From: Yuukianura sp. NJ FZ-2021
Taxonomy: Eukaryota
Reading direction: 5' to 3'
NCBI GenBank assembly: GCA_046563655.1
Contig: CM102286.1
Location: forward strand, 7,998,001-8,062,000
DNA: 64,000 nt
A program made the position numbers and the translations under genes. Positions 28,601 through 60,303 of the stretch are shown here, in pieces (the first letter of the stretch is position 1; each line of letters starts with the position of its first letter). The notes under the pieces are model-generated. The model was not told the origin of the DNA. It saw only the letters and a list, made by a program, of their open reading frames with translations, and made no database searches.

Positions 28601-31600
28601 AAGCAAGTTCACAAGTTGCAACTAACCAAATAAGTGTTTGAGGTGAGAAGTTAGATTTGTTTGAAATTCAAATTCGTACCTGCTCCACTGGTGGACAACG
28701 GAACTCCTTCGTTTTCTTAGCCGCAATGGCGGAGGGCAAGTCGGACTGCTTGATTTCAATGTAGCGTCGTAGTTGATCCTAAATTTTTAGTGAAACAGAA
28801 TATCATGAATATCAATCCGGTTATTTTGTTTCAATAACGTAAGAAATACAATAAGTTATTGAAAAGCTTTCTTACAGCCTGAATTTCACCAACGTAGTCA
28901 TGACTGAAAGTGACAATGGCTTCCACACGATGACGGAGTTGGAAGTCGTTCATATGGTGGAGAAGGTAGCACATTTGCAATTTGACGCCTTCCGCCAACT
29001 CCATCTGTAGTAGGCCTTTCCGGTGGTCTTCTCCATCATCCTCGGTTGGAAATCTTTCAAATCGGAAGACTTCGGCTGCTCAAAAAATTAGCATTTAAAA
29101 AAACGTTTAGCATCGCCGGACCAAATCTTGTCGTTTACATTTCAGTTTTTCGGAGTCCCATGTATTGGGATGTATAACGATCAGCAGCCGTTCCACATCT
29201 TCATCTTCGATTACTCCAACTAAAAGTAACTTGTCCAGCAATTTCAGAAGAGGCACAAACAAATTTTCGTTACTTCCACCAACTGGGTCTCGGTTGTGGA
29301 CTTGGTTGATCTTTACAGCCTCTTCCAAAGCTTGTATTGCAAAATCTCGAACAACTTGCAGCGGAAAGTATGGACTGCTCAGGTTTTTAATGTTCTCTAC
29401 CACTTCACTGTAAAAAAAAAAGAATTTCAAACATTTTTCAAGACGCAAAAACATGCTGCTCAAAAAATTTTCAGACAACAATTATTCAGAATTACTCAAT
29501 TTCGGTCATTGTCATCTCTGGTCGGATGCACAAGGTTTTGACTGATCGCAGACTATGACGCATCGCTTCATCCTCGTATAGTTCCTTCAATTCTGGCGTT
29601 AGCGGAATAATGTATTCGTTTTTACAAACCTCCCTGACAGCGTAAATCAATGATTAAAAATAATCTCACTTTTCAAAAGTTAGAGAATTTTTCTTACATT
29701 GTGGTGGCGAACGACTCCAAATGCAGGGCGATCAGCAAGTCGTAGAATCCGCGTCGTAGGGGTCCAGAGAGATACTCAGCTTGAATGGCGTACAACAACT
29801 GCTTTTGGTCAACGTACATGCAGAGAGTATGCGCAGCTCTGTAATTCGACTGGTAGCACAGTGCAGCGTACAGTGTCAGCGTATGGTAGTGGAAGCTGGA
29901 ACAAATTTTTAAAATATCGGACATCAAAATTTTAGAAAATAGTCGCTTCCTCCGTTCAAAATAGTACAAAAGCTTGTACGCGTTAGTAAGTGCTACACTT
30001 GTAGTAAGACAAAAAAATAGCAAAACTATACCTTAGTAATCTGTCCATTTCAATCAGTTCCAAAATGTCAATACAACGATCTTCTTCTGGAATATGCAGT
30101 GCCAACATTGAAACTGGATCTTCACATAGCGTACTCCACCCACGAGTGTCGGACAACTTAAGAGCATGTAGTTTCAGGGAAGTGTTTGGAACCCGTGCCC
30201 ACTGATGTGGTCGAAGAACTTGAACTTTTAATCGTGGTGGGAACTGTGCCAAATCGGATTGTTCAAATGTGCTGAGAATGAAACTTGTGTTTAAAAAACA
30301 GTTAAAATGAAGCGCTTACCTGTGGAGACAAGTGCTTTTCTGAATTTTGTAATACGGCAGCGGAAATGGGAAGCGTGCTTGGCGTCCGCCCAAGTTCAAA
30401 TTGCAGAATGTCTTTACTTGTTGCTTCCACAAAAATGGCTGGAAAAACTTTTGTTCCAGGTTCGAGCTAATATGTAGAATTTAGGCAGTTGAAAGTTAAA
30501 AACATAAGATATTTTTATAAAAAATCCGGTAAAAAAAGTAATACCAACCTTGAATTCTAGTTTTGTAGGCTTCCCTTCACATTCAAAATGGATCATGCCA
30601 GTGGATGTGTCAATGAAACATCCAATGAACATTCCCTGTGTCCCCTTCCCAGTTGCGTCTTGGTTCACTTGTGCGTACAACTCATCTGCAGATACCATGT
30701 AGCAGCTATTACGTTTGACTCTGAAAAGTAGACAAAAAAAAATTAAATTTTTAGAAGATTCTAAACAAACTTTTTCCACCAGGAGAAAATTTTTGAAAGA
30801 TTTACTGCTCAATGTCTGGATCAAATTCTTCTGTTCCTGCAATGGTCACTTGGCGTACTTTCCCTTGGTTGAATACTTTACTATGAAAATGGTACTGTGT
30901 TGTCACATAGCCAACATAAACATGTCCAGGATCTTGACCAGGGAAAATTCGAACACCATAAAAGTACTCGTCCATGAGCTTGAGACATTCAGCATCGAAC
31001 AGTTCTGCGTCATCGTCTTCGTAACCTACCATCATCTGAGCACCAGCAACCGACTTTCGTTGTCCCATTGGAGACACACCTAAGCAGATTTCAATTCAAA
31101 ACGCAGCAGAACATTTTAAAAAAGAAAAAATCGTTTACCTTTTCCCTGTCTCTCTGGAACCGCTGGAGGCACAATTTTCAAATTGCTCTAAAAAAATTAG
31201 TTTTTAACAGATTTCTAAAAATCATGACAATTACTATATGACATAATTATGTTAAATAGTTACCTGTGAAAGCCGAATGTTGTGACTCTTTACATTCAGT
31301 AAGTTTTGCTTTTTATCTCCAGCAGGCTCTGGTTCCGGCGTCCTAGACGATTTAGCGCGTTCCTTGCTTTCCTCTCTTTTTCTTGTGAAGAATCTGTCAA
31401 AAATTGCACATAAAGTTTGTTATTAAATTGTAAATTAAAAAAACACAAGTTGATAATTTTACCAAAAACAATTAACGAAAATATTTTCTAAATGAAATTA
31501 AAACTGTCAGAAAAATATTTGTTTGAGGAAGGTATTGGTTAAATTTGAGTTAGTGGCTCACCGATTCGTAAATATCATTCCGAGTTCTGTTATTTCGTCA

Positions 31601-34600
31601 ACGGAATACATACTGCAGTAGTGCGTGTTAGATGTTAGCATGAAAATCCAATAACCGAATTGAAAGGTGAGAATAACAGGATTAGTTGAAAAGTGAAAGT
31701 TCTTATCACCTGAATGGAGACTTTCCTCGTTTCTTTTTATCCTCCTTTGAGTCCGGGCGGGGCGTTAGCTCTTTGTTACGTCTCGCATTAATTTGGAGCT
31801 CACTGGCAGCTCTCTCCATTTTCCCATGAGCAGAGGCAGTGGATCCATTCAGTTGACTTGTATCGTCGTAATCGAACATTTTAGAAGTGGATCCCGCCCT
31901 TGCCGATCTTGGTGGAAGTTTCACATTTTTTCCTATAGTTCCCGCTCTCTTTCGCCCGCGGTCGTCGTTTCCATTGACCATTCCAGCATCGTCCTCCGCT
32001 GCGTCTTCGGAGTAACCACGCTGCAGTTCTTCAATTATCGTTTCGGAAAATAAAATATCAAATTTCTAACTCAATTCTAATTCAATCTTATGATAATCCG
32101 AGGTTTCAAAAAAATGGAGAAAGTAATGGCCCTCACCCTTAATGTCATTCATGGTAAATCCGGATTTGAGCATGGATTGTTCCAAATTGTTATTACGGGA
32201 TGTGTAGCCAGTTGAGCGGAGACGATGTTGCCTGATTCTAATTTCCTGCCATCGACGTGCCTTCTCCTCTTCGCTGTAAATAAGGCATAAGATGTCAATC
32301 ATCTTAAAATAGATTTAGATTATGCCTTGTTAGTTTGAATTGAGAGAATTTGTCTTTGACATAGTGACATCTACATAATTATTCTTACTCGATGAACTCA
32401 TCATGACAGATTACTGGAAGAGAAAGTCTGAGGAACTCCCAGTTGGCTTTCTCCATGGTTTCAAATGTTTTGTGACTTATGCGAAGACTTGGCGGGGTGT
32501 CCGACCCAGCAGGCAAACGACTCACTTCGATGTTCGCATCCGGAGATTCATCCACGTTTTCGAAAATGGGCTGGTCTTTTGTATACCAAAAGGTCATAGG
32601 TCGGTTCATATTCCTACAGCGTACAAAGTTCACAGAATAAATGCGACAGTTGCTCTCAAGTATGTCGCTTTCTTCAGTCACATGAAGATGGATGAATTTG
32701 GTGTGATGTGAATGAAACATCTTCATTTAACAACTTACACACAGAAGGGCTCGTAGCCTTCTTGGAGACCGCAGAGCGTAAAGAAGCGAAGTGCATTCAC
32801 GTCATGTCCAAAGGACAATTTGGCGCGTTGTCCTACTCCAAGGGTGCATGCTGGAACGAATGCTTGGCCCTGCACATCCGTAAAGGCAGTTTCTCCTCCC
32901 ATGGCGTCCATGAGCAACTCACCGTTAAGGGAAAAGCCTATTAATTTTTATTAGGAAATTAAAGTCGATGTTGTTTAAAGTCGATTAAGTTGAAGTAAAG
33001 TGAAAGCAAAGCACTTGGGCATCAAGCTGACTTCACAACATTAAACAGCATGTGTACTTATTAAACTTTGCTCCTGCATTTTCAAGTTTGTCTGACTTTT
33101 TGGAAATGTTTCTAAAAATTTTTATTTTTTGAGTTGGTTTTCGAAAAGCTTTGCGTTTACATTTGGTTTGTTAGTAAACTAAAACTGATATTTTTGTTTT
33201 TGTTTAAAACTGATAACTATCTAATGAAACTTTTGAAGATGAAAGTATTCGAAAAAAAAATAAACGTTAGGTATAGGAAAGCTATAGGTTTCTGGAAACA
33301 AAATGGCGGGAATGTTAACACCACTTTACGTTTGAACTTACTGATTGTTTTGTCAATTAAGTCAAGGAGAACACCAATGACATCTCCAGCAGCCCATTGT
33401 TTACCATACGACTCCGTTCCGCCCATGAAGCATTTTTCCTCCTTTGAAATCAAAAGTGGAAGGATTGTGCAAGTTGCGGCTAATTAGGTAAACATTTTGA
33501 TTCTCAAAGTGGACATTGTTAAGCAGCGCCACTTTTGCTGAGACGTTAGCAACGTAGCGCAAACATGGAATTTTTGCGTATGAAATTAAAATTGCGCTGG
33601 CAATAACATAAAACAGGCGTTTATAAAATTTGCAATTTTGGACAACATGAAGCAAGTAACGATTCCTCGTCGATGCCGCTTTTGTGAAACGTGTGTCAGA
33701 ATTAGTGAACAATTGACTAAACTAAGGTTAAACTCACGAATTGTTTGATTAGTTAGATCTAACATGCAACCCATTGTATCTCCTACTCTCCAATTCCGCC
33801 CAAAATATTCTCGACAGGTCTGATGGGTCTTGACACACTGTATTCACACGGACGGAAAAGTCATTTTTTTGTTATTAGTAGATATATTTGCTTTTTGCTG
33901 GCTTTTTCGAGGCTTTTTCAAAATTGTCATTGGTCTTTTTCAAAAAAAGTGAAAGCAAAGGAAAATGGCAAGTCACGCGAACGGCTTAATTCGAGGGAGG
34001 GATGAGGAGATTCCACATTCTGGATTGAATTACTCTGCGTGCATCTCTACTACCTCTTCATCAATTTTTAGAAAAATTCTAGAAGTGGCACTTACGTTAA
34101 ATCCATCAAAAGCCCATGAATATTCATCGCTACCAATTTGTTTTCCAGGCTTGCAGTCAACACTCATCCAACCGACACGCATCGGACCGGCCGTCAGGAC
34201 TTCAAACTCGAAATACCTAAAAAGTCAAGGGCAAAGTGGATTTCAGTTTTTTTTTTTTTGGATTTTGACTTTCTCTCTCTTTTTTGATGATTTTTGGTTT
34301 TTATTGATTTGATTTAGTACCATTTGCCGGAAGTGACTTCGTAAGTTTTCTCGGCTCGATAAGTTCTGTAGTCGGCTTGTGATTTGTCCTCAGATTCTGC
34401 TTTCACTGGAACAAGAACAAAAGAGAAAGCGTTAGAAATGATTTGTTTTCTATAGGCTTTTCACATGGGATAATTCTGGAAGATCTTATATAGAAAACCT
34501 TCATGGGTTTCTCCAGCGGGTGGTTCGAGCAGATAACCGTAAACCAGCAAAGTCCTTACGGTCTCACTTGCGGTGTCCCTATAAAACGTAATGGAGGATA

Positions 34601-37600
34601 CACGGAATGTTAGCGGCGAACAAAATTTAATTTTGGTGCAAAAAAAAAAACGTAACAAAGTAGCATTCTTTACCAGTTGGCAATTTTAATGGCCTCATCC
34701 ACTTTACTGTAAGGAACCAAATGTGGACTTCGCTTTGTTTCTGCGTCCTAATTTTTTAGAAAAGCAGTTTTATTTATTTCCCGCTGCGAAGTCTATGGTG
34801 CGTAAAATTGTTCAAAAAGCAAGTTTAAAACAAAACTCTTCCAAAAAATTGTGTCTAAAAAAGAATTCCTCTTTCGTTAAAAAATATCCCCAAGTAACTT
34901 TCTTTTGACTTTTTTTTTCGGAAAATTTGCATTCACTTTTAGCTATGCCTTTCCCCTGTCAAGCGTTTTTCCGCTTTCCTTTGATGATTGATGATAACAT
35001 TAATTCATCATTTGAATTTTAAAATTGAGCGCTGTTGTTTAAATTCAAATTAATATTTTGTTTTTGAAAGAACCTCGTTTAGAGCATAAGTCCATCCTTC
35101 TGCAACGCGTTCTTTGGCCCAAATATTATGCGTATTTTCTGCCAATTGATCCACAAGTTCCTCCAGCTTCTGGTTTAGGTTAATGGCGCTCAAGTCCAAC
35201 GGTGCAGGTTTGTATCCATTGGGTTGCATAAATGGATCATTGGGTAAGCGGATGCTGCGGATGCGTGAAGGCGGTTTATCCAGTGATATATGATAGCCTA
35301 GTGCAATGATCGTCCTAATATGGAAAAACATCTCGTTGGAACTGGGCCAAGAAACTCTGAGAGGCAAAGATTTCGCATAAAGATCAACAGTGTAAAAAGT
35401 ACTTGAGTGTTTGCTGGGCCAACTGGATATCAAATCTCTTCTCTGCTGGCGGAAGCCGGTCGAATGGAGTCAAGCACGGATGGTAGCGTTCATAGTCGTC
35501 CCGGTACTCTCCATACATCCAACCCGCTTCGATCTTGTTCATTGCCCACATTTCATGAATATTCTCCGCCAGCTTGTCTCGAACAGTTTCAACATAACCG
35601 GGAAGAGTCACCTAAAGTTTTGAAAATTCGAAAAAGTTTTTGAGTCAGAATTGAAGTTGAAACATCTCTTTCCTTTCAAAACCAAATCGAAATTTTGAAC
35701 TTTAGTACATTTGATGTGTCGACGGGTTTTGGGACAAAGGCAACATCGTCTTCGACAAATAGAGGTCCTGACAGAACTCCTTTGGCCAAATCCCCAAAGA
35801 AAAAGCATGGATCGAGGTACAAAGACTGTGTTGGTTGTAGACACTCTACCAAGGGAGAATGATCTTCTGGAGGCGGAAAGCGTAGCTTTCCCTGATCCCC
35901 ACCAAAGAGAAAGCGACAACTGCAAGTCAAATAACAAAACAGGAAATTCAATCTCCTAAACAGACACTTTCAGCTTCAATAAAACCCATTTTGAATTTGG
36001 GTTCCAAATTCCAATTTCTGAGAGCCAACGCAAATGCTCTAAGGTTGATGCATTGACGCTTTCCAGATCAACCGTTCAAGTCTTTTCTGTAAATATTTGC
36101 AAAGCCTCTCCGCAAACAAAAGTCTTAAACCGAAGTACTTCAGAATTTTTACATTTGATCTTTCTGGAATTTGGTGTCACAGCAAATATGAATGACATGA
36201 CTTACCTAACTTTGGCTGAAGCACTCACAACTACAACGTCAAAACAATTTTTAAACAAAGTTTACTGTCTTAAATTTTCTATTTTCTGTATTTATGGTAT
36301 GTACCTGGAAAAAACATTCCATCCAAATTGAAATTTTTAAAAGACCCACGGATTTTGACTCCGTTGAAGTAAAAAGTCATGATGGGAACGGACAAATCCA
36401 GGGCACATCCAATCACATCTCCCTTTCGAATGAATGGTTCCGACGACCCAGGAACCACACATGTACTTCGGCCACCTTATTTTGAAAAAATAATGAAACA
36501 AGATTTTTTTTCTAGAAAGTCAATTCCATAAATTTTTATAAGACATTGGCATTTTGAAAGTCTGAAGGACCATCCTGACCTGACCACAAATAGGCGCCAT
36601 CAAAACTGTAAGAGTAAAGGTCATCCCCAACGCCGTTTCCGCCCCACTTTTCTCCTCCGCCAGGATAAGGAATGTACCTGCCAAAATAAATCTTTTTCAA
36701 AAATAGTCTTTTGAAGCCTTTTGTCATTTCAAGTCATTTTCATCATAGCTGAAAAAAATTTAAGTTGAAGATGCCGAATTTGAAAATTCTCCGACATTTT
36801 TTGAAAACAAATTCATGGATTGTTTTTTGTACAAATATCATAAACTCTTGACTGTACCCTGCCGTATTTGCCCATCCAATTCGTAGGTGTGGTAGCATGT
36901 GAGTTGCCTGTTCGATGTGGTCCAGCGTCACTTCAAAGTACCATTTTTGGTAAACCGCAGACCCGTCCACTTTTCCCACAAAAATATTTGGTCGAACGCT
37001 ATAAAAAGAAAAAACACATAAAACTAAGGAAGGAAATTCTTGGGAAAAGTTATGATTTTCAATCTCATAACCCAAGCAGAGACAAAAGATGCAGTTTCCA
37101 ACCATGGATTTCCCAAATTCCTGACATGAATCTTCCTGAAACAATGCACTAGGATCTTACCTCCCTACATGATCCACAAGTAGGGTATGAAGAAGTAAAT
37201 TTTTGCCTGGTAACAAGGAGTCGCAAATGTTATTCTGAGATGAACGCACAGCAACTCCATTTCCAACACACAGGGAACAAAGGACGTCAAGAACTTTGGG
37301 ATCTCGGCCATGTTTCTCAAGGAGGGAGATGATGACTTTGATGTGTTCTTCCTACAAAACAAAGGAAATAACAAAGGTTTCGTTGTGTTCACCCACTTTT
37401 TGCGACATTATTTGGAATACGTGTTCCACTCTACCCGCATCATATTTAGAGCCTCTGGACTGTCAATTAGAACACAATGGAGCACATCCAGCATTCCCAT
37501 TGTTGAGGAAATCTGTCGGGAAAGAAAATAGTGTAAAACTACAAAGGTATTCAGGAGGTGTATACAAAGCACTTCGAAAACCACCGCGGCAAAACTCTTT

Positions 37601-40600
37601 CAAAAAGTCGATTTCAAAATTCCTTTGTGATGTAAATGTTTGAATTACTTTCTTTTGTTTGCTTTCTCCAGCGGCACTCCCTGATCCACCTTCTCCAGAG
37701 GCCTGTGACCCAAGTCGACCGAATAACCAATTGAGTCGACTCGCATTGGCAAACTGAGCACAATTGGTGTGGTTTCCCTTAATAATGGCGGCTACAAAAA
37801 AAAGTTTGAGCGGGAATTTCAAGTTTCTTCTTGTTATTTGCAGAAGTTCTTCCATTTCATGTTTGAATTTATGGTTTACCGAGAAGTTGATACAGAAATC
37901 CTGAGATGACATCCCAATTTTGTCCTGCTTCTTCTGTAGCAATAGCTGCAATGAATCCTTGGGAAGTGATGACAGTGATGTTGTCAATTGCATCCAGAAT
38001 GAGGTTCAGAATGCCTTCTTCCTGAAACAAGTCTTGTCGATTCCGGAGGGCACGCAGTTTGTTCTGCTTCTCTTCATGCTCTTATAGTGTAAAGAGAAAG
38101 AAAAGATGAAAGAAATTCTTTAGACCCAGACTAAAATTCTAAAAACCCAACTTTCTCTTGCTTGTTTCTCACCCATATCATCTTCAGGCTGAGCAAAGTA
38201 GTTTATTAGATCCTCCAAGCACATCACCATTTCTCCAAGATTCACGGATTTCAAAAATATTTCTGTCTTTCCCGTCATTTGAAGCGACCTGAGTCCCCTG
38301 TTGGAATCGCAAATAAAACAACTTAAGCTCCAAACTAATTTAGGTTTCAAAAGAAAAAAGTTTTCTCTAGAGGAAGTTTCAAAATTTCTCCTTTCTATCT
38401 GCCCTACATTTTCCAAAAGTAATTTTTACACAAATTTTAACCTTAAGCGGAAAGGATGCCTTTGAATAATGAATTAGTTAATGGGTTTCCCATTCTGTGT
38501 AGCTCTAATGCACGGGAGTAGCGAGGCGTCACTCAAGTCAGAAACCAGTACCATTAGGCCACAAACGAAAATTTTCTAAACAAAATTCTGGCGCGGAAAA
38601 AAGTGAAGTCTTACTTGATAAACCGCGTAAAGTGGGAAGAACATTTTCGAATGACGCGGGCGGTTCGGGACTCCTCTTCTTGACTGCGGCTAAACTCAAG
38701 TCCATCGTCCATCTTCCCCTCTTCGTGCAAAATGGCTTGTTTCTCCTCAACTTTTCCCACGCCTTTCTTCTTTGTTTCGTATGTTTTGTAGGAGAGCCAG
38801 AGCCCGGTCTCTGTGTGTTGAACTATCACGGTACTGTCACCATACTTGATCACTGGACTTCCGATGACCTCCAAGTCCTTGTCTTCCAGCACATTTTTCT
38901 GATCGTCTTTCTCCTGACGAAGGCAGAAGGAAGTGGCAGAAAGTGTACCATCATCCCTATAAAAAATTTAAAAAGTAATCCGTCAAAAATTTTGGTTTGT
39001 CAATAAATTATGCATAAATGGAGAACACGACAGCGACTATTCGGACGAAACTTTTTTCTCCAATTCAAAATGGTACAACCATATGTTATAACATTCTAAC
39101 GTATAACATAGCGTATTTTAAGATATGTTAAACTTAATAGTTTTAGGCGAGATAATTTTGGAAAAAAAAAAACAATCTCAAAAGCTAATTCGACAAAAAA
39201 TCAAAAAAGTTTTTGGTTAAATCAGGCAAAAATCGCCAAAATCTTGGAACAATTGAGATAAATTTTCAAAACTGAGCATACCGATGGAGCAGAATCAGTT
39301 CATTGTTTTCGTTGAAACTCAAGTATCTGCCAGTAGTGATGTGCTTGATTCGCATCGGATGGAGCCAGTTGATGAATCCTCCAGCCCATTTTGTTCTGGC
39401 AAGTTCAAGTCTCCAGAGAGACCGTGCTTGACTAACGACATTTCCTCCCTCGTAGATTACCATGCTATACAAAAGAAAATTGGAGAAAGTCATTGAAAAG
39501 AGTAGGCGGTAGTTTTAGGATGAGGTTACTAATGGCAGTAGTTTTGGTGGTTACTTGTGTTCTGGGTCGTCGCTCCAAGTTGCCGGAACAGTAAGACATT
39601 CATCACCGCCATGAAAAAATCGAAGAACTTCACCCCCAAACACATAACCTAAATTTCAAAGAAAGTTACTCAAATCAATATAAGGGATACTGCCTACCAC
39701 TTTTCCCACAGCCACTTCCATTCCCAAATCGATTTTAATCTCTAGAGACCGGAGTAGGTTCTATCAATAAGTCATTGTCCAAAATATTATTTAAATTGCC
39801 TCTAACGACAGCTCTTTCAAGCTTACCCACGTATTTGACCCTGCTCAGTCCAGTTCCATAGGGTTGGACAGACCAGTGAGTGACATGGAAGGAGGCGTTT
39901 ACCACAGACAGTTCGTGTTCCTTGGCCGTGTGCTGAGTTATAAATATCGTTTAAAGCTATAGCATTAGCATTAGAAGTAAGTTTAGGTTAGCAAACTTTT
40001 TTTTTTAAATAGACTAACCAAGTATCGCTCAGTGGCGACTGACACCAAAATGAGGTCATCTCCGACTCGGATCTTCTCTCCCTCTGACCTTTGCTTCGAC
40101 GCCGGATGGACGGTCCACCAACAAGCCTCTCCTGCGAATTTCAATTGAATTTACGCGCCGAAATTAAATGAACCAGCGTTGTTAAGTGGATTGTCGTAAG
40201 TACCTTGTGAGTGGTCTTGAAGACCCACATCAAAGGCCAGTTTGTCATTTGAAGAGCTTGTGGAGAGGCAAGCCAAGTACTGTAAAAGTTAATGAACAAG
40301 TAAAAAAACCGAAATCCGTCTGAAGTTTTGACCTCGACGTAACCCTTACCATTTTACTGTTGTTGTGTCTAAGTAGAATAGCATTTCCGTATAGTAAGGT
40401 ACGATGTCCAGACCCAGTTCCTTTTCCCTAATTTAAAAGGAAGTCATGTTAATGCTCAAACTTGACATGAATAAACGCTTCACCATAAGGTTCAGAATTT
40501 TATTTCTAGTAAAAGTTCAAATTTTTTTTTGATATTTAATTAAATCGAATAATTTTTCCAGTTTTCGTGATTTTGATTCATTTCAAACACATCGGTTTCC

Positions 40601-43600
40601 GGAATATTGGAATTATGACAAAAGTACGTGACAAAATGCATGACTACGGGAGGATGACAGTCACAAAATCTGGCAATAAATGACGTCAGGTTTTCCATTG
40701 TTTTTGCCTAAAGGAATTGTAAAACGGAACTCGTACCCATACATGGCCATTGTGGGGGTTATTCCCCACAAATCCTCCCATAGCCACTTCGGTTCCCTTT
40801 CCCCCTTCTTCTCCCCCTTCGTCCTTCCAGCAGCAGCACAACAACAACTCCACGTCCTCACCACCAAAACCACTCGCCCACCAATCAGATGCACGGGAAG
40901 TTGCATCATCCATCACTTGGACACGCATCCCGTCATCATCATCATCACCACTGTCCACTTCTTCCTCCACACAGTCTCTCCCTACTCGTCACTCTGCCCG
41001 GATCTTGTCCCGTCTCTCTCTCCACGTCTCCTCCATCTTGGATTGGCCACTGGACCACGCCGGAACTACTGTTGTGACCCGGACTGACCTCTACAAGCCC
41101 CACCGGACCAGTACCTGGTCAATCCTGCACAGGACCGAGCCCCACCAACCTCTACACTTCATCAATTCAACATTTGGCCCTCATTAGACCGTAAACTCTA
41201 TCCTAATTACTGTAAATAAAGTTCATTGTCCATTTGTAGCCATTGTCGTGACCTCTGCCCCACTTTATTGTTCGAGTGGCCTGTGTGCCAGTCGTCGGGG
41301 CATTGCAACCCCTCAGGTGGGATGCTCAGCCGGGAAACGAGCCACCGTGACCTCACCGCAACCGAATCGTGAATCATGCCACAAGGAGCCCTGTGACCCC
41401 CGTGACCTCTCCAAAAACTAATCAAAATTTTTTTTTTTAATAGCAGTATTTGAAAAAATATTGGTTTCGAAATCATGCTCATTCTTTCTCGATTTTTTTC
41501 AGATCTCCTGAGCGAGCCACCAACCTGCCAGTAGCCAGTAGCCACGAGCCACCATCATCCAAAAAGCCCACGAGGAGCCGACAAAAGCCACAACCGCCAC
41601 GTCACACCCACTCTTCATCTCCACGCTCCAAGTCCACGCTCCAACTCATCACTTCCTGCCTCCACGTCATCTCGTCTTTTCTTCACTGCCTCCTCCGTGC
41701 AGTCACTGACCGATTGAGGCAAGGTCACAAAGGTCAGCCGTTTTCTTTTGGTTATCCCCCCTCCCACTGCGCGAGCGTTTTTTTAACGAAAAGTAGCAGC
41801 CCCGCGTAAAGTTCAAATTCAAAAATCCTAACGTCCCCCTGTTCAAAATTTTTCAAATTTTCAAAAACTTAGCCGTTTTCCTTCAAATTTAAATTTCTTT
41901 TTCAAAAAGCGTAACGCCCCACCCAAACTAAAGTACCCCAGTCTTCCCTGCAAAGGTCAAGAGGCTATTCCACTTTCCCTCCCTTCTGAAATTTTGGTCT
42001 GAAAATTTTTGAAACATAACCTAAATTCGAAAAACGTTAATCCCTACCCAACCCCTGTCAAAATTTTTTCTAAAATTAAAGTAGTTTGAAATTTTTCGGT
42101 TTTCAAAATTTTTTTGAATTGAGCCTGCCCCACCTAGTCCCACCATTGAACAACGTTACCAAATTCACATTTTCCTTACCCCTTAACAGAACTCTGCCCA
42201 AATTTTTCTTGATTTCCGACACTTAGCAGAATTCCGATTTTTGTTTACCCCTACCTAACCTAATCCCCAGAGTCAGCCGATTCTACTGATTTTTCAAGTC
42301 GCACGTAACTGCGATATCCCCCATTCCCCTGAATAGTCGGATTTTCCAGAATTTGGCTAAAAACTATTCCTAATTCCTAAATTACGTTACGTTCTAACTT
42401 TACATTAATTAAATTCAGATTTTCGTCCAAACTTCAAAAATTAAAAGCGGCTTTTCGTCCCAAACCCCTGCCCGATTTTCCCAAAATTCTAAAAACTTAA
42501 AACTTTTCAAGTCGGTGTGCGTTTAGTCAGTGAGTGAGTAGGTACTACCTATTCCCCTGACTTCGCCGATTCTTCAGATAACGCGATTTTACGTCGTGCC
42601 CTCCCCTATTGAAGTTCCCATTCCAATTTTTCGGTTCTTTTTCTGAAAATTAAGCTCAGTAATGCAAATTATTGAGTGGTTTCTTTGGCTCGTCGGTTTC
42701 TTAATGTGGTTTGGCATTGCATCGGTTGGCGTACGACTCGTTTTTCTCGTTCTTCTTGTCCGATTGGTTCTTTATTTTTTCTAAAGTTCTGTTTTGGAGG
42801 AATTTGATTGTAAAATCATAGCCCCTAGACAGTAGCTAATTCTACAAACCCTATTTTTTTCAAATTCCCATTTCTTTCTTTTTCTAGATTTAAGCTTACA
42901 AATATTCATATCCAAAATAAGTTCATATTTAATACATTTTTTGAAGTATTTATAGAAAGTCCCTGCCCAGTCCAGAAAAGCAAGCGATGTACTCCCCATT
43001 CCTTTACATTGTCTTGATCGTTGTGATTGCTACGATTGGTGTCATTGTTCAACGGATTGTCGTTTTCTTTTTGGTCTCTCTTCTCCTACATTTTCTTGAG
43101 TAAAGCTTAAGTGCTGAAAAGCATTTAAGTTATTTTGAAGTCCCTGCAAATGCAAATTTTTTGGTCCTTTCTAAAGACAGTCGTATTTCTCGGCTTAGCA
43201 GCATTCTTCGGGATCTGCTTCATCCTTTTGGTCCTTGAAACTGTGTATCTCATTGCAACATTCCTCTCCCACATTACTTATTCCTGTCTAATAGCGACAT
43301 TTTCGGTTGTTTCTGACTATATCGCCCTCCACATTATCCCAGTCTTCTACTTACGGCAAGCTCCGAGGACTTATCGTTACTTCTTCCGGGTCCTCATTGG
43401 CACCGAGACTTACTACTTCCTAGCCCTAATTGTACGAGTCCTATACTACCACTGGGATTTCTTCGGTCCAATTTACCGGTGGTTGTTCAAAGCATTTGCT
43501 AACGCCCAAGGCTGGTTAGTGTTCGAGTCAGAACCCCGTGTAGACCCGAGACGCCGTCTCTAAGCGATTTCAAAAATGTTGTCGTACTTTGCGAGACCAT

Positions 43601-46600
43601 TTGCCTCTACCCCCCAACAAGATGGACAGTCCCCTCAACATATCTTGTCGCAATCTACAATTCCCATGGATACTGCTACCCAGACTCTTCCTCCTACTCT
43701 CAATTTGTCAACTCAAGGTCAACCTGCTGCAGTTCATTTTGCCCCAACACAAGCCCAATTCGTTCCTACACCCCCCACCCCAGCAAGTACTATTGCTAGC
43801 CCTGCAGCTGTACAAGCTTCCATTCCCCAAATTTTTCGAAATTTCCCCCCACCCGACCCAAGCAAGCAGGACATCAAGATATTCAAACACATTCGACAGT
43901 ACGATGGAATGAGCGATCCTGCTGAATACATGGCCCGATACAAATACGACTTGGGCGGATCAGGCTTTGGTGCATTCGGAGCGCTTAGTCATTTTGACAG
44001 AGTGTTGACGGGTGTTGCTAGTGCCTGGTTTGTTTCCATTTGGCCCCATTTCCGTGAGCAGTTGCAAGTTCCCTACGCAGACGCAGAAAACATTTGGAGC
44101 AAATTTGAAAAAGAATTTGTTTCCCATTTTTCCCTTAAAGAGCGACGGGAGGTTTTCAAAGCTCAGAGTAAAGCTCTGCGGTTCAAAATAGGGGACAACA
44201 TTGATCAGTATGTAGCTGAGAAAATCCAAATTCTTTCCAAACTTGATCCCATGATGCCAGAATCCCGGAAGGTTGAACAATTAGTTCGTGGTCTCCCACA
44301 CGAGCTGGAACAAGCATTTGTCATGCAGAATATCCAGACCCCTTCCGAATTCCAGAAGATCCTGAGACGAGTTGCTGATGTCCATACCCGCTCTAAAGGA
44401 AGTTCCGATCCAATGGTTTCTCTTCGTGGACTTGAAACTCAAATGGCTCCCGCCATTCCAAATGCTAATTTCCCTACAACTGTTCCCTACCAAGTCCAGC
44501 AGTACCAACGCCCTCCTGCTCAAGCCCAACCAGCAGTTCAAACTGCTCCCCAGCCCGATCGCCCTTTCCCTCCACAACAGAATCGTCGTTCTGATGATGG
44601 AAAGCCAATTTGCGATTACTGCAACAATATTGGACATATTGTTCGATACTGTCACAAATGGTGGTGGAGCCAAGGCATTGACCCTTTGACCCGCAACTGT
44701 AGACCACTGCGCCCCCGAAACAATCCTAATAATCAACAACCCCAGCAGCTGGCTAGTTATAGCCAAGCTGTTCAACGTCCCTTCCCTAACGTTGATTCAA
44801 GACCACTACAAACCAGCCCACATCAGCCGCAGTCATTTCAAAATCCACAAACTGGACCACCAGCTCAGGAAAACCAATGGGTTCCTTCGATGATGTCTGC
44901 TTTCTCTACAATGACGGATCTTCTTACAAACATCGCATCCGCCGTACTTCCAAAACCTCCGGAAAACCAATAGAGCTGCCGTTGCAGGGACGTCAGCTTC
45001 TATTACCACCCAATCCAGTCTCTCAAATTAAGGTACAAGCCCCACCCAGGGTTTGTCCAACACGTCCCAAATCCCGAAAAATCAAACAACCTAAATTTCA
45101 AACCCACAAGAATTGTTCAGCTTTTGGCAGGAAGCACAATTCTAAAATTCCCATTATTCCAGAAGAGTTTCTTTCCAAACTACAAGCTCTTTTTGACCAC
45201 CACCGAACTTGTCCTAAATCAAATCCCCAGCCTATTTCACCTTTGGTCGTTGGGGAGGCTACTACAACCTTCCCAAACTTTTGTTCTGACGCTGCAGTCC
45301 CTACAGTCCCTACTTCTCTTCGTAACTCCGCCGCTACTAATCCTACTTCCCTTCTGGGACCTACAACTACAACTACAACCGCCGCCGCTACTACTACTTC
45401 TGTTCTTCCCCCTACTCAACCTACCGCTGCAGTACCAAAGTTTGTTTCTGTTTGTGTTGGCCCTTCTGAACCTTGCCCTTCCGCTTTTGTGTGTGGCCCT
45501 ACTCAACTCAACCCACTAGCCGTTTCTCTCACTTCCAAATTTGGCATTAGCCCCTCCAATGTAAGCCGAGTCGCTGACTGGGTAAATTATTCCGCCCCTG
45601 AGTTCTCAGCTGCAAATTCCAAAGTTCCAGATCCCACTTCTTTCGATTTTGATTCCCCACCTAAGTCCCCAAGTCACGATTCCGAGTTTCCTTCGGGAAT
45701 CTCAGCTGCAAAGTTCATTTCCGGAATTGACTCCACCCCCCATTCTACTTTCCATACCGATGTTGTCTTTGGTTCTACGACTCTTCGAGTCCTGTGTGAT
45801 ACAGGTGCTTCTCTTTGTTGTGTCCACCCTGATTTTCTAAGGAGGTTCCCCAATATTGTTTCCCAAGCGGTTGATGTTCAACCTGTTCGAGTCAAACTTT
45901 CTTTTGGTTCTTACGTTCGTTGTGGTTCCCCCCAAACCACAATGATCACTTTCTCAATTGCTGGCGTCTCTTTCCAATACCCCTTTTACATCTTCCAACA
46001 CCTTTCAAATGAGATCGTTTTGGGCTCAGATTTCCTCCGTTCCCAACATTTTCTTTTGGATCCCGCGAATGAGCGCCTTGTAAAAGGTGAACTCCCGTGT
46101 ACAGACCTCAGAAATGAGTATGTTTGTATTCCAAAATCCCAAGTCCCTGTCCTTAACAAATTAACTTTGTCAGAAACTGAAGAAGTTTCTGATAGTCCCA
46201 GTATTCCAAAGTCTTCGGAAGCAGAACCAAAGTCGATCCCTCCCAAATGTACAGCCAGTCCCAAAAACCAAAACCCTCTAGCTATTGACATGGCTCTGAA
46301 TTCATCTCAGTCCCCAGATACTTCAAATTCCCCTTCCCTACTTGACTCCGAAGCGTCCTTCGTGAGCAATTCGAATTTATCTCAAAATTCTACTCCCCCT
46401 CCGTGCCTGAGACTGGCCAGGTCAATCCTCATTAACCCAAGAACAATGAAACGAGTCAGTGTAAAAACTGATTTACCTTTCACCGGAGACATTTTGGTTT
46501 CCCCTCGTCGTGAGCTCCAACACGCAAAACATATTGCCATTGGGAATTCCATTTCTACGCTTAAAGATGGCAGCGGAGTTACGTTCTTGTGGAATTTGAG

Positions 46601-49600
46601 TGACCGCCCTGTGAAACTTCTTCAAAACATCTCTATTGGCACCTTCGAACCCTTCGCAGAGTCTTCCGTACTCTGTGACCTTGATGAATTCGACCATGTT
46701 AGCTCTAAATCCTCCCAATCTTCCCTCCCAGCGCACGAGATCTTAGGACTTTCGGTTAATGATGACGCTGAAATAGCAACACTGAAACTGCAAAAGAGGA
46801 TCGAGGCGTTCCAGATTTCAAATTCCCTAACCCCTGAACAGCGCCAAATTATGCAAGATTTTCTTGTAGCGAATTTGGATGTTTTCAATTTTGATCCTGC
46901 TACCCTTGGCCGTACTCACCTAACCACCCACAAAATCGACACAGGTTCTGCTAAACCGATTGCTTCCCATCCCCACAGAACCGGATTTACAGAGCGGAGG
47001 GAAATTCAAAACCAAGTCGAGCGTCTTTTGAATCTCAATGCTATTACTCCGAGCGATAGCCCTTGGTGTTCCCCAGTCCTTCTGGTCAAAAAGCCCGACG
47101 AAAGTTGGCGGTTTTGTGTTGACTTTCGTAAGGTCAACGCAGTGACTCGGAAAGATTCTTACCCCCTTCCCCGAATTGATGATACCCTCGACAGACTTAA
47201 TGGCGCCAAGTATTTTTCCTCCATGGATTGTGACCAAGCGTATTACCAGGTTGAAGTGGAGCCTGAGGACCGAGAAAAGACCAGTTTTGTGACCCCCGAC
47301 GGACAATATGAGTTCGTTGTAATGCCCTTTGGTTTGACCAATGCCCCCGCTACTTGGCAACGCCTAATTGACAATGTCTTAGGTCGTTTGAAGTGGTCCA
47401 TAGCACTCGTTTATTTAGACGATGTGGTTTGCTACTCCCGAACTTTTGAAGAGCATTTGGATCACTTAGCCCAAATTTTTTGTGCCCTTAGAAGAGCTGG
47501 TCTGAGTCTTAAACCCAAAAAGTGTAACTTTGGCGAAGATTCCCTAAAATTCCTTGGCCATATTGTTTCCAGAAATGGAATTGCAGTTGACCCCAACAAA
47601 ACAAAAGCAGTTCGTGAATTCCCTACTCCCACGACTGTTAGAGGTGTCCGTTCCTTCATTGGTCTTTGCAGTTACTATCGCCGATTTATCGAGGGTTTTG
47701 CCGAAATTGCCCGTCCCCTTCATCTTCTCGTTGCTGCGAAACGTGGTACCCCTTTTCATTGGACCCCCGAAGCCGAAACAGCGTTTCAGACGCTAAAAGA
47801 CAAATTAACATCTCCCCCTGTCCTTGCGTTCCCTGATGAAGAAGCCGAAACGTCCGTCCATTGTGATGCGTCTGGACTCGGTTTTGGAGCGACCCTTTGC
47901 CAAATTCAGGACGGAAAAGAGAGAGTGGTTGCTTATGCTTCCAGAGCGGTTTCCCCCTCCGAATCAAAATTTGGAACCCCCCAATTGGAAATGAAGGCTT
48001 TTGTTTGGGCTGTAGAGAAATTTCGACCGTATTTATACGGCCGTCATTTTAAAGTTGTCACTGACCACCATTCCCTTTGTGACATGCTAAAATTTAAAGA
48101 CCCCTATGGCCAAATTTCCCGTTGGTCTTTAGCCCTCCAACCTTATGATTTTACCGTAATTCATAAGAGTGGTCGTGTTCACACCGATGCTGATCCCCTT
48201 TCCCGTAACCCAGTTGACCCAGCCCCTCTGACACAGACCATTTGGCCATTGAACATCATCTTCTGGCCTTAGCGGTTTCCCCTGAATCCCCACGAAGAGT
48301 TAGAGATGCAAAACTGAAAGATCTCCAGCTTAAAGAGCCAGAATGGCTTCCTGTCATTGAGTATTTGAAAGCAGAACAATCTGGTACTTCCCATAGTTTG
48401 CCCGAACCCAAGAAATTGAGAGAGCACAGTCTTCGTGATGGCATTTTGTACCGGATGAACTACTCGGAATTTGGAAATCTCTGGCGTCTTTGTCTCCCGA
48501 AATCCCTCCGAAAATCGTCCATGGAATCCGTACATAACGACTCCCTTAGCCACCTCGGCTTACACAAGACTTGGCATCTTCTACGCTCCAGGTTTTATTG
48601 GCCCCGGATGTATCGCGATGTGGTGAAATTTGTCACGTCGTGCCACTTGTGTCAGATCCATAATAGACGGAATTTTGCTCTCCCGCCAAATAGCGCTGGT
48701 CTTGACGTTCCCGCCATTCCATTCCACACCATTGCCCTAGACTACTTAGGCCCATTCCCCGTCACAGCGAGACGTAACAAGTACATTCTGACAGTAATTG
48801 ATCTCCATACCCGTTACGTAGAAGCCTGGCCAGTTCCCGCAGCAGATTCTGCTCAAGCGATTAAAGTACTTAACAAACACGTCCTTTTTCGCCACGGAAT
48901 TCCCAAAATCATTCTGTCAGACCGTGGTACGGTTTTCCTTTCCGACGAATTTGAAGATTTCCTTTCCCTCCACGCCATTGAACACAGATCCACGACTTCC
49001 TATCATCCCAAGTCTAACGGCGTCTGTGAACGACATAACGGCACGGTAAAGTCAGTAATCGCCAAATTCGTAAGTGAAAACCACAAGGATTGGGATCTAC
49101 ATCTCCCCAGGGCGGTATTTTCCATTAATTGTTCAGTACATCGTGTCACTAATTTTTCTCCTTATTTTCTGGTCTTTGGTAGGGAGCCGGTTTTGCCGGT
49201 TGACAGGCTGTTCCCCCTTCCCCGGGAATATTTAGAGCCCGACGATGCCCTGGACCGATTATTTGTTGCGAATAACGTAGCCCACGAGCTATCCCGTGAG
49301 CAGCAGCTTCTCAGAGTTAAGGCCCAATTACAGATCCGTTTCCCGACTTATGTCGTTGGTATGAAAGTTCTGCTCAGGAACTTTCAGCGGAAAAAGGGTC
49401 GTGTCGGCAAATTTACGAAGAAGTGGATTGGCCCTTACAAAGTCATTGACGTCCTCCATAACGGCACTGTTCGAATTACTTCTGTTCCCCCTCGGCAGCC
49501 TCACGAGACTGTCGTGAACGTTCAGCGCCTTAAACCTTATCATCAGCGTGTCTCTGACACGTCTGATGCAGACAGTAGTTCCTCTGAGTCGTCTGATAAC

Positions 49601-52600
49601 GATTTTGTCCCTCCTCCAGTGTCTGACCCTGATTTGTCCTCTACATTACCAAAATTGCCAATTCCGACTGAGCAAAATGACCCTCTTACGCTTCCCGTAA
49701 CGCCAAACCAAAATTCTGACCCCCCTAATGTTGACTTAAATGACCAAAATCAAAGCCGTGACCCAGAAATCCTAATTCCACCAATTTTACTCGCCCAGGA
49801 TACCCTGCATCCCGTTGCGAGTGAAATCCCCGTATTTTGCGCCCCTGCCAGCGTAAAAACCCCGATTTCTAGTCGTCCGAAACGCGCGGCTTACACTAAA
49901 GCTCTGTCTTGCATTTCCCGCCTTGCGAAGCCAAAGAAGCGCTGACTCAGTAATTAAATACTGATGCTGTTCTTTTTATATATTTTTAGATGGACCCCCC
50001 TCACGATGATGACATGATGGACGAAGGAGATGACGCCTCTGAGGGCATTGCCGAGATCGATTTGGCTGCAGAAGATGACCTTTTGAACTCTCCTCCTCAA
50101 AATGATGCTGTTTCTCGGTCTTCTTCATCTTCGTCTTCGTCTCCGTCTCCTACCGTCATTGCTGCTCCAATTTCTACGCCTGCCATTGCACCGATTCCGG
50201 ATGACGACTGGGATATGCCCACTGCTGCTGCTTCCCCTCCAAAATCCCCGAAAAAGCTCAATCGGCAGTTGTTTTCCCCAAGCTCTAGCAGCTTCCAACC
50301 GAATTCCCCCCAAAAGTCACTCCAGGACATGGTTTCGGCTCCTCCTCCAGCGCCACGCCCAAGACTTGCTTCGGTCGTCGTGGTTGTTCCCCCCAAGTCC
50401 CAGGATTCTGCCACGTTTCGTCGTCCTCGTGACCCAGCCCCAAAATCGAAGCTACAGGCTCAGCGTCATGGATCTGCGAAGATTCCCTCGCTTCTGGATT
50501 TGCAGTTTCCAAACGGACCCCCAAAACAACCCCCAGTTGGTCGTTCGCGATCCAGCTCCCCTACAGCTTTGACACGCAAAATGTCAAATGTTTCCTTGTC
50601 CCCAAGAACCCCTAAAAACCCCCAAAACCCTGGACCCAGCACTTCATCAAAATCTGTTCCCCCTGTTCGAGCTCAATTCCGTTCCAATCGGCCTTCTCCA
50701 TACAACGCTCGTCCAGCTCCTCCCCGAAATCGCTCAGCTTCTCCCCAGATTCGGCCACTTTCTCCAAATTCACGTCCAGTTTCTCCAGCCACTTCTTCAA
50801 CTTCACCAATTCCGTCCACTTCAACTTCAATTACCGTTCCTGTCACTTCGGCCGCTTCACAATTCCCATTTTCATCAATTCCCCCCGGATATTTCCCCTA
50901 CTACACCCTTCTCCCGAATTCAGCAACTTCTGTTACCTTCACTTTCAACTCCCCACCAACTCCAATTTTAACCCCTCCCCCAGCTCCAGTAGTTTCAGCT
51001 CCAGCAGCTTCAGCTCCCCCAGCTCCTGTACAAGGACGTTTTCCCCCTGTCCCACCTAATCCACCAGCTCCGAATCGGCAGCAGAGACGTGCTCGTTGGT
51101 GGGCCCTGAACTCGGCCAATGCTCCACCTCCGCCGAGGAAGAATTCCCCAAAACGCCGAGATCCTCCAGCTCCACCAAAATAACCCCCACGTCTTCTTCA
51201 AATGTCGCCGGGACGTCTCCAGGTCGTTGGGGACCTGTGGGGGTTATTCCCCACAAATCCTCCCATAGCCACTTCGGTTCCCTTTCCCCCTTCTTCTCCC
51301 CCTTCGTCCTTCCAGCAGCAGCACAACAACAACTCCACGTCCTCACCACCAAAACCACTCGCCCACCAATCAGATGCACGGGAAGTTGCATCATCCATCA
51401 CTTGGACACGCATCCCGTCATCATCATCATCACCACTGTCCACTTCTTCCTCCACACAGTCTCTCCCTACTCGTCACTCTGCCCGGATCTTGTCCCGTCT
51501 CTCTCTCCACGTCTCCTCCATCTTGGATTGGCCACTGGACCACGCCGGAACTACTGTTGTGACCCGGACTGACCTCTACAAGCCCCACCGGACCAGTACC
51601 TGGTCAATCCTGCACAGGACCGAGCCCCACCAACCTCTACACTTCATCAATTCAACATTTGGCCCTCATTAGACCGTAAACTCTATCCTAATTACTGTAA
51701 ATAAAGTTCATTGTCCATTTGTAGCCATTGTCGTGACCTCTGCCCCACTTTATTGTTCGAGTGGCCTGTGTGCCAGTCGTCGGGGCATTGCAACCCCTCA
51801 CCATGTATCAATCAGTATCATCAAAGTCAGGTTTTTGACGCGATGTTGTAAAACTTTTGACTCATGGCGAAGCGTCAAAGACCGATAAATTGCATTTTCA
51901 CATCACAAGTTCGCACATCTCACACGTATCTATTGCAGATTTGGCAGATAAGATTTGTTAACCGCAGAGTTAGCAAATAAACAAACTAAATTCTATACAA
52001 ACAAAATCGGTCGTTTTACTTTGAACAGTTATTCCGTTAACTACGAAATTGAGGTTTATGGTTTAAGTTCATTGGATCTGATCTGAATATTAAATGAAAA
52101 CCTAAAAGGTCAAAGTTTTGTGACTAATTGTAAGTCGTAGCGATTACTTCGAGACGAATATTTTTGTTTTTTGCGTAATTTTATCAATTTGTTGGCAATG
52201 TCGAGTCAACAAGTCAGAACAGTTAAATCACTTTGAGATAACTAAGGTCATGAGTCATAATTTTTAAATTAAGCTGTAAACAGTAACGACGGAAATCGTG
52301 TAAAAGTGAAAACTAACGTTTGGGTTAGGTTATGCGAGATTTTGCGATTCCACTACGTAGTAAGTAACGAGACAAAGTGAGTAAGAAGGAAAGTTTAATT
52401 AAAGCAGTAGCATGAAATGTGGCTAAAAGGTCCTTTGTATTACTTTAAACTACAACGACATAAAAAGATGAGGAAAACTAATGAAACAAAATGGAAAGTT
52501 GAAGAGGGAAGAGTTGGAGAAAGTAGTTGCAGAAGATTTCTTAGAAGAAAGTGAAAGCAAATTTTCTTTCGCTTAATCAAAAGAAAAAGAAGTTTAGAAG

Positions 52601-60100: not shown

Positions 60101-60303
60101 AACAATCGTATGAATTTCATCATTAGGAACCCGTACGATTCTGGTGATTGACTCGTTTTTAAGCCAACCAAATTGGTTTAAAGCGTTCCATTTTTCCTTC
60201 GTACCTGCTCTAGGTCAGATCCAGATCCTGACCCTGCATCACTGTCACTGTTTAGCATATTACCCTTACGCTTCAATCCACCGCCACCACCGCTTCCTAC
60301 CAT
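57180..60303 (-). CDS. RTF1: RNA polymerase-associated protein RTF1 (Paf1 complex; Plus3 domain)
   Basis: [43 protein letters not shown], Plus3 [10 protein letters not shown]...FVRLGIG...[28 protein letters not shown], end [16 protein letters not shown]. Confidence 0.95.

Follow-up and report, generated by a model that had tools for sequence, protein, structure and literature searches.

Three small hydrophobic open reading frames upstream of gag as candidate membrane-protein cistrons of an env-less Ty3/gypsy retrotransposon in Yuukianura sp.

The window analyzed here is a 64,000-nt stretch of contig CM102286.1 of Yuukianura sp. NJ FZ-2021 (GCA_046563655.1; positions 7,998,001 to 8,062,000 of the forward strand), and all positions are counted from its first letter. 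A whole long terminal repeat (LTR) retrotransposon was found at 40751-51800, in which three consecutive small open reading frames (ORFs), designated ORFa, ORFb, and ORFc, were located between the leader and gag. On balance, we lean toward the view that these ORFs are genuine upstream cistrons, carried on the unspliced RNA of a Ty3/gypsy element that is young and seems to be active, and that their products have a membrane accessory role. The features of this part of the element were as follows.

41316..42661, plus strand: leader, 1,346 nt, from the LTR end (41315) to ORFa
42662..42784, plus strand: ORFa, 40 aa, ATG-initiated
42785..42986: ORFa-ORFb spacer, 202 nt, ATG-free
42987..43103, plus strand: ORFb, 38 aa, ATG-initiated
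43150..43563, plus strand: ORFc, 137 aa, ATG-initiated
43576..44973, plus strand: gag, 465 aa, with Retrotrans_gag (PF03732, E 4.2e-05) and a CCHC knuckle

The initial annotation had described three consecutive plus-strand, ATG-initiated ORFs of 40, 38, and 137 aa behind a leader of about 1.3 kb, the last ending 12 nt ahead of the gag ATG (43576). These coordinates were exact, and the leader measured 1,346 nt. The described hydrophobicity was also recovered, with grand average of hydropathy (GRAVY) values of 1.94, 2.12, and 0.77 for ORFa, ORFb, and ORFc, respectively. ORFa, which contained two basic residues, was hydrophobic throughout except for R25 and R34 and had an in-frame internal ATG at 42704; ORFb, with a single basic residue, was hydrophobic throughout except for Q22-R23 in the middle of the peptide. 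In ORFc, residues 1-66 formed an unbroken run of hydrophobic segments in Kyte-Doolittle windows, followed by an Arg/aromatic-rich stretch (R68, R72, R75, R79), a second hydrophobic/aromatic region (~80-100), and a charged tail, with RRR near the C-terminal end. ORFc contained no Met beyond the first and no internal ATG in any frame. The N-termini of ORFa, ORFb, and ORFc were MQII, MYSP, and MQIF, respectively. The three ORFs occupied three different frames, and ORFc was in the same frame as gag, with one TAA and four codons between them (43561-43578).

Motifs shared at or ahead of the ORF starts were confirmed, namely AATGCAAATT (42661, 43149) and AAGTCCCTGC (42957, 43138). Short DNA repeats were in excess (four 10-mer pairs vs. 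0.8 expected, P = 0.0085), and a 24-nt stretch at the starts of ORFa and ORFc was 79% identical. The suggestion that the three ORFs arose by duplication was not borne out at the protein level, where similarity was not significant for any pair (P = 0.064 for a-b, 0.27 for a-c, and 0.94 for b-c).

Sense-strand ATGs were strongly depleted upstream of gag. The region 41478-43575 (2,098 nt) contained four sense ATGs vs. 15.9 expected, and four or fewer were obtained in 0 of 2,000 dinucleotide shuffles. These four ATGs were the starts of ORFa, ORFb, and ORFc and one in-frame Met codon in ORFa. ATG was the most depleted of the 64 trinucleotides in this region (observed/expected 0.25), and its reverse complement, CAT, was not depleted (33 vs. 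31); gag and pol showed no ATG depletion. In the leader portion of the region (41478-42661, 1,184 nt), no ATG was present vs. 6.1 expected (P = 0.0025), with CAT at 12 vs. 15.8, and the non-coding parts (1,444 nt) contained 0 ATG and 18 CAT. Because hydrophobic codons disfavor out-of-frame ATGs, the ORFs were tested apart from the non-coding parts. Inside the ORFs, the number of out-of-frame ATGs was 0, compared with an expectation of 3.6 under codon-order shuffling (P = 0.012) and of 2.3 under synonymous redrawing with gag-pol codon usage (P = 0.047). A degenerate motif of ~31 nt (CCTAWTCCCCWGA..GCCGATTCT..AGA) was present three times in the ATG-free leader (42258-42290, 42320-42350, and 42547-42579), and a tandem repeat search of the leader yielded trivial short arrays only.

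The objection that T-rich DNA yields hydrophobic ORFs by chance was addressed with shuffled sequences. In dinucleotide shuffles of 42662-43575 (n = 2,000), an ATG-initiated ORF of at least 137 aa appeared in 0.6% of cases, and at least two hydrophobic ORFs (at least 38 aa, GRAVY at least 1) appeared in 12 of 2,000 (P ~0.006). Given the stop frequency of the region, the joint probability of three ATGs being followed by open frames of 38, 40, and 137 codons was 2.5e-5. In a second test, the letters of each ORF were shuffled and outcomes were retained only if open. The mean GRAVY of these open shuffles was 1.32, 1.18, and 0.34 for ORFa, ORFb, and ORFc, respectively, vs. the observed values given above (P = 0.04, 0.0055, and 0.0185), and T at codon position 2 likewise exceeded the open shuffles (P = 0.007, 0.004, and 0.010). 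The remaining two frames over the same DNA were far less hydrophobic. ORF length, ORF number, and frame-specific hydrophobicity therefore exceeded the shuffles, with composition contributing in part. Apart from the three ORF starts and the in-frame Met codon, the leader and cassette are purged of sense AUGs, and the hydrophobicity is specific to the reading frames. Judging from the ATG desert, the frame-specific hydrophobicity, and the intactness of the ORFs in a copy with identical LTRs, the three ORFs have likely been selected and translated.

To compare sister copies, DNA contigs from four sequencing runs were aligned to the interior of the element; three runs were from the probable source sample, and the fourth (X4) carried another organism label and belonged to another study. 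The individual differences considered below are 40 of 1,223 substitutions and 12 of 109 insertions or deletions (indels), a small sample selected by the tool. One X4 contig (42248-42811) covered ORFa completely; over its 564 nt, 19 differences but no gap were counted. A second one (43103-45481), covering ORFc and gag completely, showed 65 differences and five gap letters in ~2,376 nt. The X4 copies of ORFa and ORFc were ~97% identical to those in the window, and ORFb lay outside the listed X4 pieces. Among the substitutions listed, five fell inside the ORFs. Codons R25 of ORFa and L68 and F125 of ORFc had changed synonymously, and the remaining two substitutions (V36F and V97I) were conservative. 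Among the indels listed, six were located in the ORFa-ORFb spacer, mostly as single letters, with those that were not multiples of three clustering at 42922-42980, and none fell in ORFa, ORFb, or ORFc. Listed indels in gag, pol, and the large ORF downstream of pol (ORF3) were multiples of three or compensating pairs. This pattern of substitutions and indels fits the proposed coding map. In some sister copies, 74 nt of the leader (41436-41509), including a short upstream ORF (uORF), were missing. Together with this loss, the end of matching of several contigs at 42095, 42248, 42459, and 42499-42506 (leader region 42095-42506) indicates that the leader is much more variable between subfamilies than the cassette.

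Homologues of the ORFs and relatives of the element were searched for in several collections. For ORFc, an IMG/VR match (L001) covered 18 residues only and was taken as chance. Neither gag nor the reverse transcriptase (RT)-RNase H region gave a match in IMG/VR, and a search of the ESM Atlas with gag returned generic Retrotrans_gag clusters only. Among 5.8 billion clustered proteins, the best matches to the RT-RNase H region were 48-58% identical (arachnids, a nematode, and contigs), and no close relative was found there. A metagenome scan yielded 80 loci at 38-50% identity; the 52-58% relatives seen as proteins were not among them, and the loci were used as background only. Enough upstream sequence was available for 45 of these loci, three of which had no usable ORF chain, leaving 42 that were scored with crudely defined gag starts. 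In 18 relative loci, 68 ATG vs. 103 CAT were counted in the 400 nt before gag, and one locus (L040) had 1,418 nt without ATG. These AUG-poor leaders suggest that scanning to gag is the rule of the group.

Several results weigh against the reading of ORFa, ORFb, and ORFc as functional membrane cistrons. Searches with ORFc yielded no homologue from 5.8 billion clustered proteins (near lengths only) or from 1.84 billion representatives, and the ESM Atlas gave no usable match, so that conservation is seen only in the ~97%-identical copies. In the scored metagenome loci, a single hydrophobic small ORF before gag was detected in 4 of 42 and two were detected in 0 of 42. The cassette was lacking from the nearest accessible relatives; in the locus with 50% RT-RNase H identity (L002), the 550 nt ahead of gag held a single ORF of 5 codons. 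Among the substitutions listed, the synonymous fraction (3/5 vs. 27% expected) was not significant (P = 0.12). Of the five gap letters in X4, three represented a 3-nt loss in pol and two were unplaced. The open shuffles of ORFa and ORFb already reached a GRAVY of 1.2-1.3, so their hydrophobicity is partly compositional. Three short uORFs were also present within 160 nt of the LTR, with ATGs at 41322, 41376, and 41475 and lengths of 16, 6, and 19 codons, respectively; the third is the one included in the 74-nt loss described above. A single-sequence AlphaFold2 model of ORFc contained two long helices only (predicted local distance difference test score, 75.7; predicted template modeling score, 0.39). 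In addition, gag translation would suffer from a 137-codon ORF that stops 12 nt upstream of it, unless the AUG of that ORF were leaky.

Some of these points would also be expected if the ORFs were translated only as regulatory uORFs that throttle or time gag-pol, with functionless peptides whose hydrophobicity is a by-product of the T-rich leader. The additional short uORFs at the 5′ end of the leader, the GRAVY that T-richness alone yields for ORFa and ORFb, and the lack of homologues in the searches, with the nearest accessible relatives having plain AUG-poor leaders devoid of such ORFs, are in line with this explanation. We nevertheless regard it as unlikely, if the most serious of the alternatives, because the ORFs are much longer than usual regulatory uORFs (137 codons in ORFc) and because GRAVY and T at codon position 2 lay above composition-matched open shuffles in all three. 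The listed substitutions, being synonymous or conservative, also argue against it, and the absence of internal Met codons and out-of-frame ATGs from ORFc fits an ORF that passes ribosomes on while encoding a product.

It is improbable that the three ORFs are merely open frames that arose by chance in a T-rich non-coding leader and are untranslated, neutral, and subfamily-specific. No homologues were found, the composition favors hydrophobic codons, and the protein similarity among the three was not significant, all of which would be expected from chance frames. In contrast, ORF length and number each exceeded the shuffles (P ~0.006 each), the joint chance was very small as given above, the sole ATGs in 2.1 kb were the three starts and one in-frame Met codon, and the listed single-letter indels of sister copies fell in the spacer and not in the ORFs.

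The shared frame of ORFc and gag, with a single stop between them, raises the question of whether ORFc serves mainly as an optional N-terminal membrane anchor for Gag through occasional read-through of the TAA, for which murine leukemia virus glyco-Gag, an N-terminally extended Gag, is a model. This explanation is very improbable: a shared frame has a one-in-three prior, the junction showed no stable structure (161 nt, z = 0.11) and no Rfam element, and TAA followed by G is not known as a leaky context. Equally hard to credit is that splicing joins the three ORFs, as exons of a single gene, into a larger multi-pass membrane protein, since each has its own ATG and stop and no joint within 42.6-43.6 kb was found among the listed DNA-contig joints (a weak argument, as it concerns DNA only), even though the ORFs lie in three frames and the element appears to use splicing elsewhere (intron-like segment 45033-49989).

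If ORFa, ORFb, and ORFc are indeed upstream cistrons, their translation could proceed as follows. Ribosomes would scan the AUG-free leader and start at the AUG of ORFa, ORFb, or ORFc, all in moderate to weak contexts. Ribosomes passing these AUGs, or reinitiating after the two ~40-codon ORFs, would arrive at the AUG of gag, the context of which (AAAAUG) appears to be the best. The start contexts were gtaATGc for ORFa, gcgATGt for ORFb, caaATGc for ORFc, and aaaATGt for gag, with a purine at -3 in ORFa and ORFb and C at -3 in ORFc. The gag context appears nearest to the arthropod consensus, and that of ORFc appears weakest. A search of Rfam gave no credible family, with four sub-threshold snoRNA-like matches in the LTRs, and the ORFc-gag junction had no unusual structure; neither result points to another mechanism.

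Such a polycistronic strategy would resemble that of rice tungro bacilliform virus (RTBV) and badnaviruses, in which, as described, the lack of internal AUGs in ORFs I and II lets ribosomes get through to the capsid-polymerase ORF (PMC5902531). The same property was found here, as the upstream ORFs and their spacers were free of internal AUGs in any frame except for one in-frame AUG in ORFa. The element and these viruses have in common reverse transcription and consecutive AUG-free ORFs before the capsid-polymerase ORF, and the upstream starts of the element appear, like theirs, to be weak or moderate. In contrast, RTBV and badnaviruses are plant pararetroviruses, their upstream ORFs do not encode membrane proteins, and a ribosome shunt precedes scanning, whereas the mechanism proposed here is read from sequence.

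The products would be two peptides of ~40 aa, each consisting nearly entirely of membrane helix, and a membrane protein of 137 aa that has several segments and a cytosolic part of basic/aromatic character. The initial annotation had stated that elements of the 412/mdg1 lineage carry short pre-gag ORFs, one of them reported to encode a FAST-like protein used in env-independent transfer, and this precedent was found to be correct. As described by Voichek et al. (2025) (PMC11952523), two small ORFs, sORF1 and sORF2, are located upstream of gag in the Drosophila MDG1 group (412, Mdg1, Stalker, Blood, and Tabor) and are carried on the unspliced full-length RNA. In that account, sORF1 encodes a nuclear helix-turn-helix protein of ~110 aa, and sORF2 encodes a FAST-like single-pass protein of ~70 aa, which is present at follicle-cell protrusions and implicated in env-independent transfer. 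The fly sORF2 proteins have an ectodomain of ~30 aa, often an MGxxxS/T myristoylation site (four of six fly sORF2s), and a polybasic patch (PMC11952523). According to another report, sORF2 is conserved across drosophilids (PMC13486581).

Similar to the MDG1 group, the element in the window is an env-less arthropod Ty3/gypsy element with small sense ORFs between the leader and gag and, here by prediction, at least one membrane-embedded product, and the present ORFs share the position of sORF2 as short sense ORFs upstream of gag in an LTR retrotransposon. The two systems differ in that the fly elements have two such ORFs, whereas three are present here, all hydrophobic from the first residues, two of only 38-40 aa, half the size of sORF2, and one multi-segment. 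None of the three starts (MQII, MYSP, and MQIF) matches MGxxxS/T. Instead of a single central transmembrane domain behind an ectodomain of ~30 residues in a protein of 63-107 aa, hydrophobic segments begin at residues 1-5 in all three (Kyte-Doolittle), and the only feature that recalls the polybasic patch is the Arg-rich stretch of ORFc (R68, R72, R75, R79). The initial annotation's proposal of a different module thus held, in that the sORF2/FAST layout is absent from all three ORFs, and they were accordingly filed as a different pre-gag membrane module. ORFa, ORFb, and ORFc are likely translated membrane-protein cistrons distinct from sORF2. This comparison with the MDG1 elements is one of layouts.

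Reovirus FAST proteins, as summarized in PMC11952523, are single-pass proteins with a small ectodomain, acylation, a polybasic cluster, and an amphipathic endodomain. The products of the present ORFs resemble them as small, putative membrane proteins encoded by non-enveloped, virus-like agents, but these hallmarks were not seen in ORFa and ORFb, and ORFc matches by its Arg-rich stretch only.

Very short, mostly transmembrane products are also made by other viruses, as exemplified by HIV-1 Vpu, paramyxovirus SH, papillomavirus E5, and potexvirus TGB2/TGB3. In the cases of Vpu-Env and TGB2/TGB3, leaky scanning on one common RNA yields both products, and the functions of such proteins include ion channel activity, receptor modulation, and movement. 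The likeness of ORFa, ORFb, and ORFc to these examples lies in small size, predicted transmembrane character, and the proposed leaky scanning.

Function is the weakest step of the proposal. The three products might form an accessory membrane module, most likely for capsid transfer between cells, which would be analogous, not homologous, to sORF2 of the MDG1 group. Alternatively, they might act in viroporin-like permeabilization or in membrane anchoring of assembly, or they might, as tiny transmembrane peptides, modulate membrane proteins of the host. A more specific version, in which they would constitute a three-protein membrane machine that is unrelated to FAST/sORF2, is expressed by RTBV-style leaky scanning, and replaces the envelope by opening or fusing membranes for capsid transfer, is quite doubtful.

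The remaining features of the element were as follows.

40747-40750 and 51801-51804: target-site duplication CCAT, before the 5′ LTR and after the 3′ LTR
40751..41315, plus strand: 5′ LTR, 565 bp, TG..CA ends, 100% identical to 51236-51800
44796..49945, plus strand: pol overall, comprising protease, RT, and RNase H (44796-48272, frame -1 relative to gag) and integrase (48218-49945)
45033..49989, plus strand: intron-like segment, GT..AG, pyrimidine tract before AG
49990..51183, plus strand: ORF3, 397 aa, Pro/Ser-rich
51236..51800, plus strand: 3′ LTR, followed by CCAT (51801-51804)

Along the element, Pfam matches occurred in the order PF03732, PF13975, PF00078 (RT, 3.7e-36), PF17919/PF17917, and PF17921 with PF00665. 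The domain order of gag, protease, RT, RNase H, and integrase is that of Ty3/gypsy (Metaviridae). The identical 565-bp LTRs and the CCAT on both flanks indicate a very recent insertion of a once-active element. No further copy was found within the 64-kb window, and the insertion site is a near-palindrome around CCAT.

The only large ORF after pol, ORF3, matched no Pfam family and lacked hydrophobic segments (the highest Kyte-Doolittle mean over 19 residues was 0.93), which indicates that the element has no env, as the initial annotation had stated. ORF3 has an acidic N-terminus and stands as a third large gene in the env position, with a 9-nt in-frame length difference at 51009 in sister copies.

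A DNA contig of one run (X1) joined 45032 directly to 49990 (joint 45030->49988, cut +2), so that 4,957 nt were absent. The skipped segment begins with GT after AAG and ends with a pyrimidine tract and AG, and the junction keeps the pol frame into the ATG of ORF3; judging from these features, it looks like a canonical intron. The precise loss in a DNA contig suggests a spliced subgenomic RNA lacking pol that was reverse-transcribed into pol-less genomic copies. Such a spliced RNA would express ORF3 as a frameshift product after gag. In the window, pol changes frame within the 48218-48272 overlap (RNase H/integrase). Since contigs of all four runs were one letter different in length in this interval, the break in pol probably stems from the assembly and does not reflect a defective element.

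Outside the element, a ryanodine-receptor (RIH) exon was identified on the minus strand (26737-27279), with up to 84% identity to insect and 76-78% identity to crustacean proteins; the host is accordingly an arthropod, pancrustacean and insect-like. Relative to this ryanodine-receptor gene (26700-39500, minus strand), the element is in antisense orientation and lies either inside its 5′ part or a short way upstream of it, and an exon-like ORF at 39266-39493, the identity of which was judged by eye only, is located ~1.3 kb from the element. Two further exon-like regions on the minus strand, 55372-55713 and 57600-60214, resembled an ADF/cofilin-type protein and an acid-rich Rtf1-like protein, respectively, again by eye only. 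A repetitive Gly/Pro/Arg-rich stretch at 545-1600 was open in six frames (190-298 codons, both strands) and probably represents a GC-rich tandem repeat, not a gene.

Pre-gag accessory ORFs were recently reported to make fruit-fly MDG1 elements infectious without env, and the published screen for such genes demanded one transmembrane domain and a myristoylation motif (PMC11952523). The cassette described here falls outside these screen criteria, and the diversity of pre-gag modules may thus be underestimated. The terms "polycistronic," "leaky," "reinitiation," and "IRES" (internal ribosome entry site) had 0 occurrences in PMC11952523, and no description of a multi-ORF hydrophobic cassette before gag was found in the open-access literature. 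Accessory pre-gag ORFs in arthropod Ty3/gypsy elements are already known, and the present findings suggest a three-ORF membrane cassette unlike the known single fruit-fly membrane ORF. The pre-gag slot may hold quite different membrane proteins, several of them together. The three-protein machine considered above, if true, would mean that env-free infectivity was invented independently a second time in Metaviridae, in a form that is invisible to screens for a myristoylation motif. The AUG-free layout offers a testable mechanism by which several cistrons and gag could be expressed from one unspliced RNA in an animal retrotransposon.

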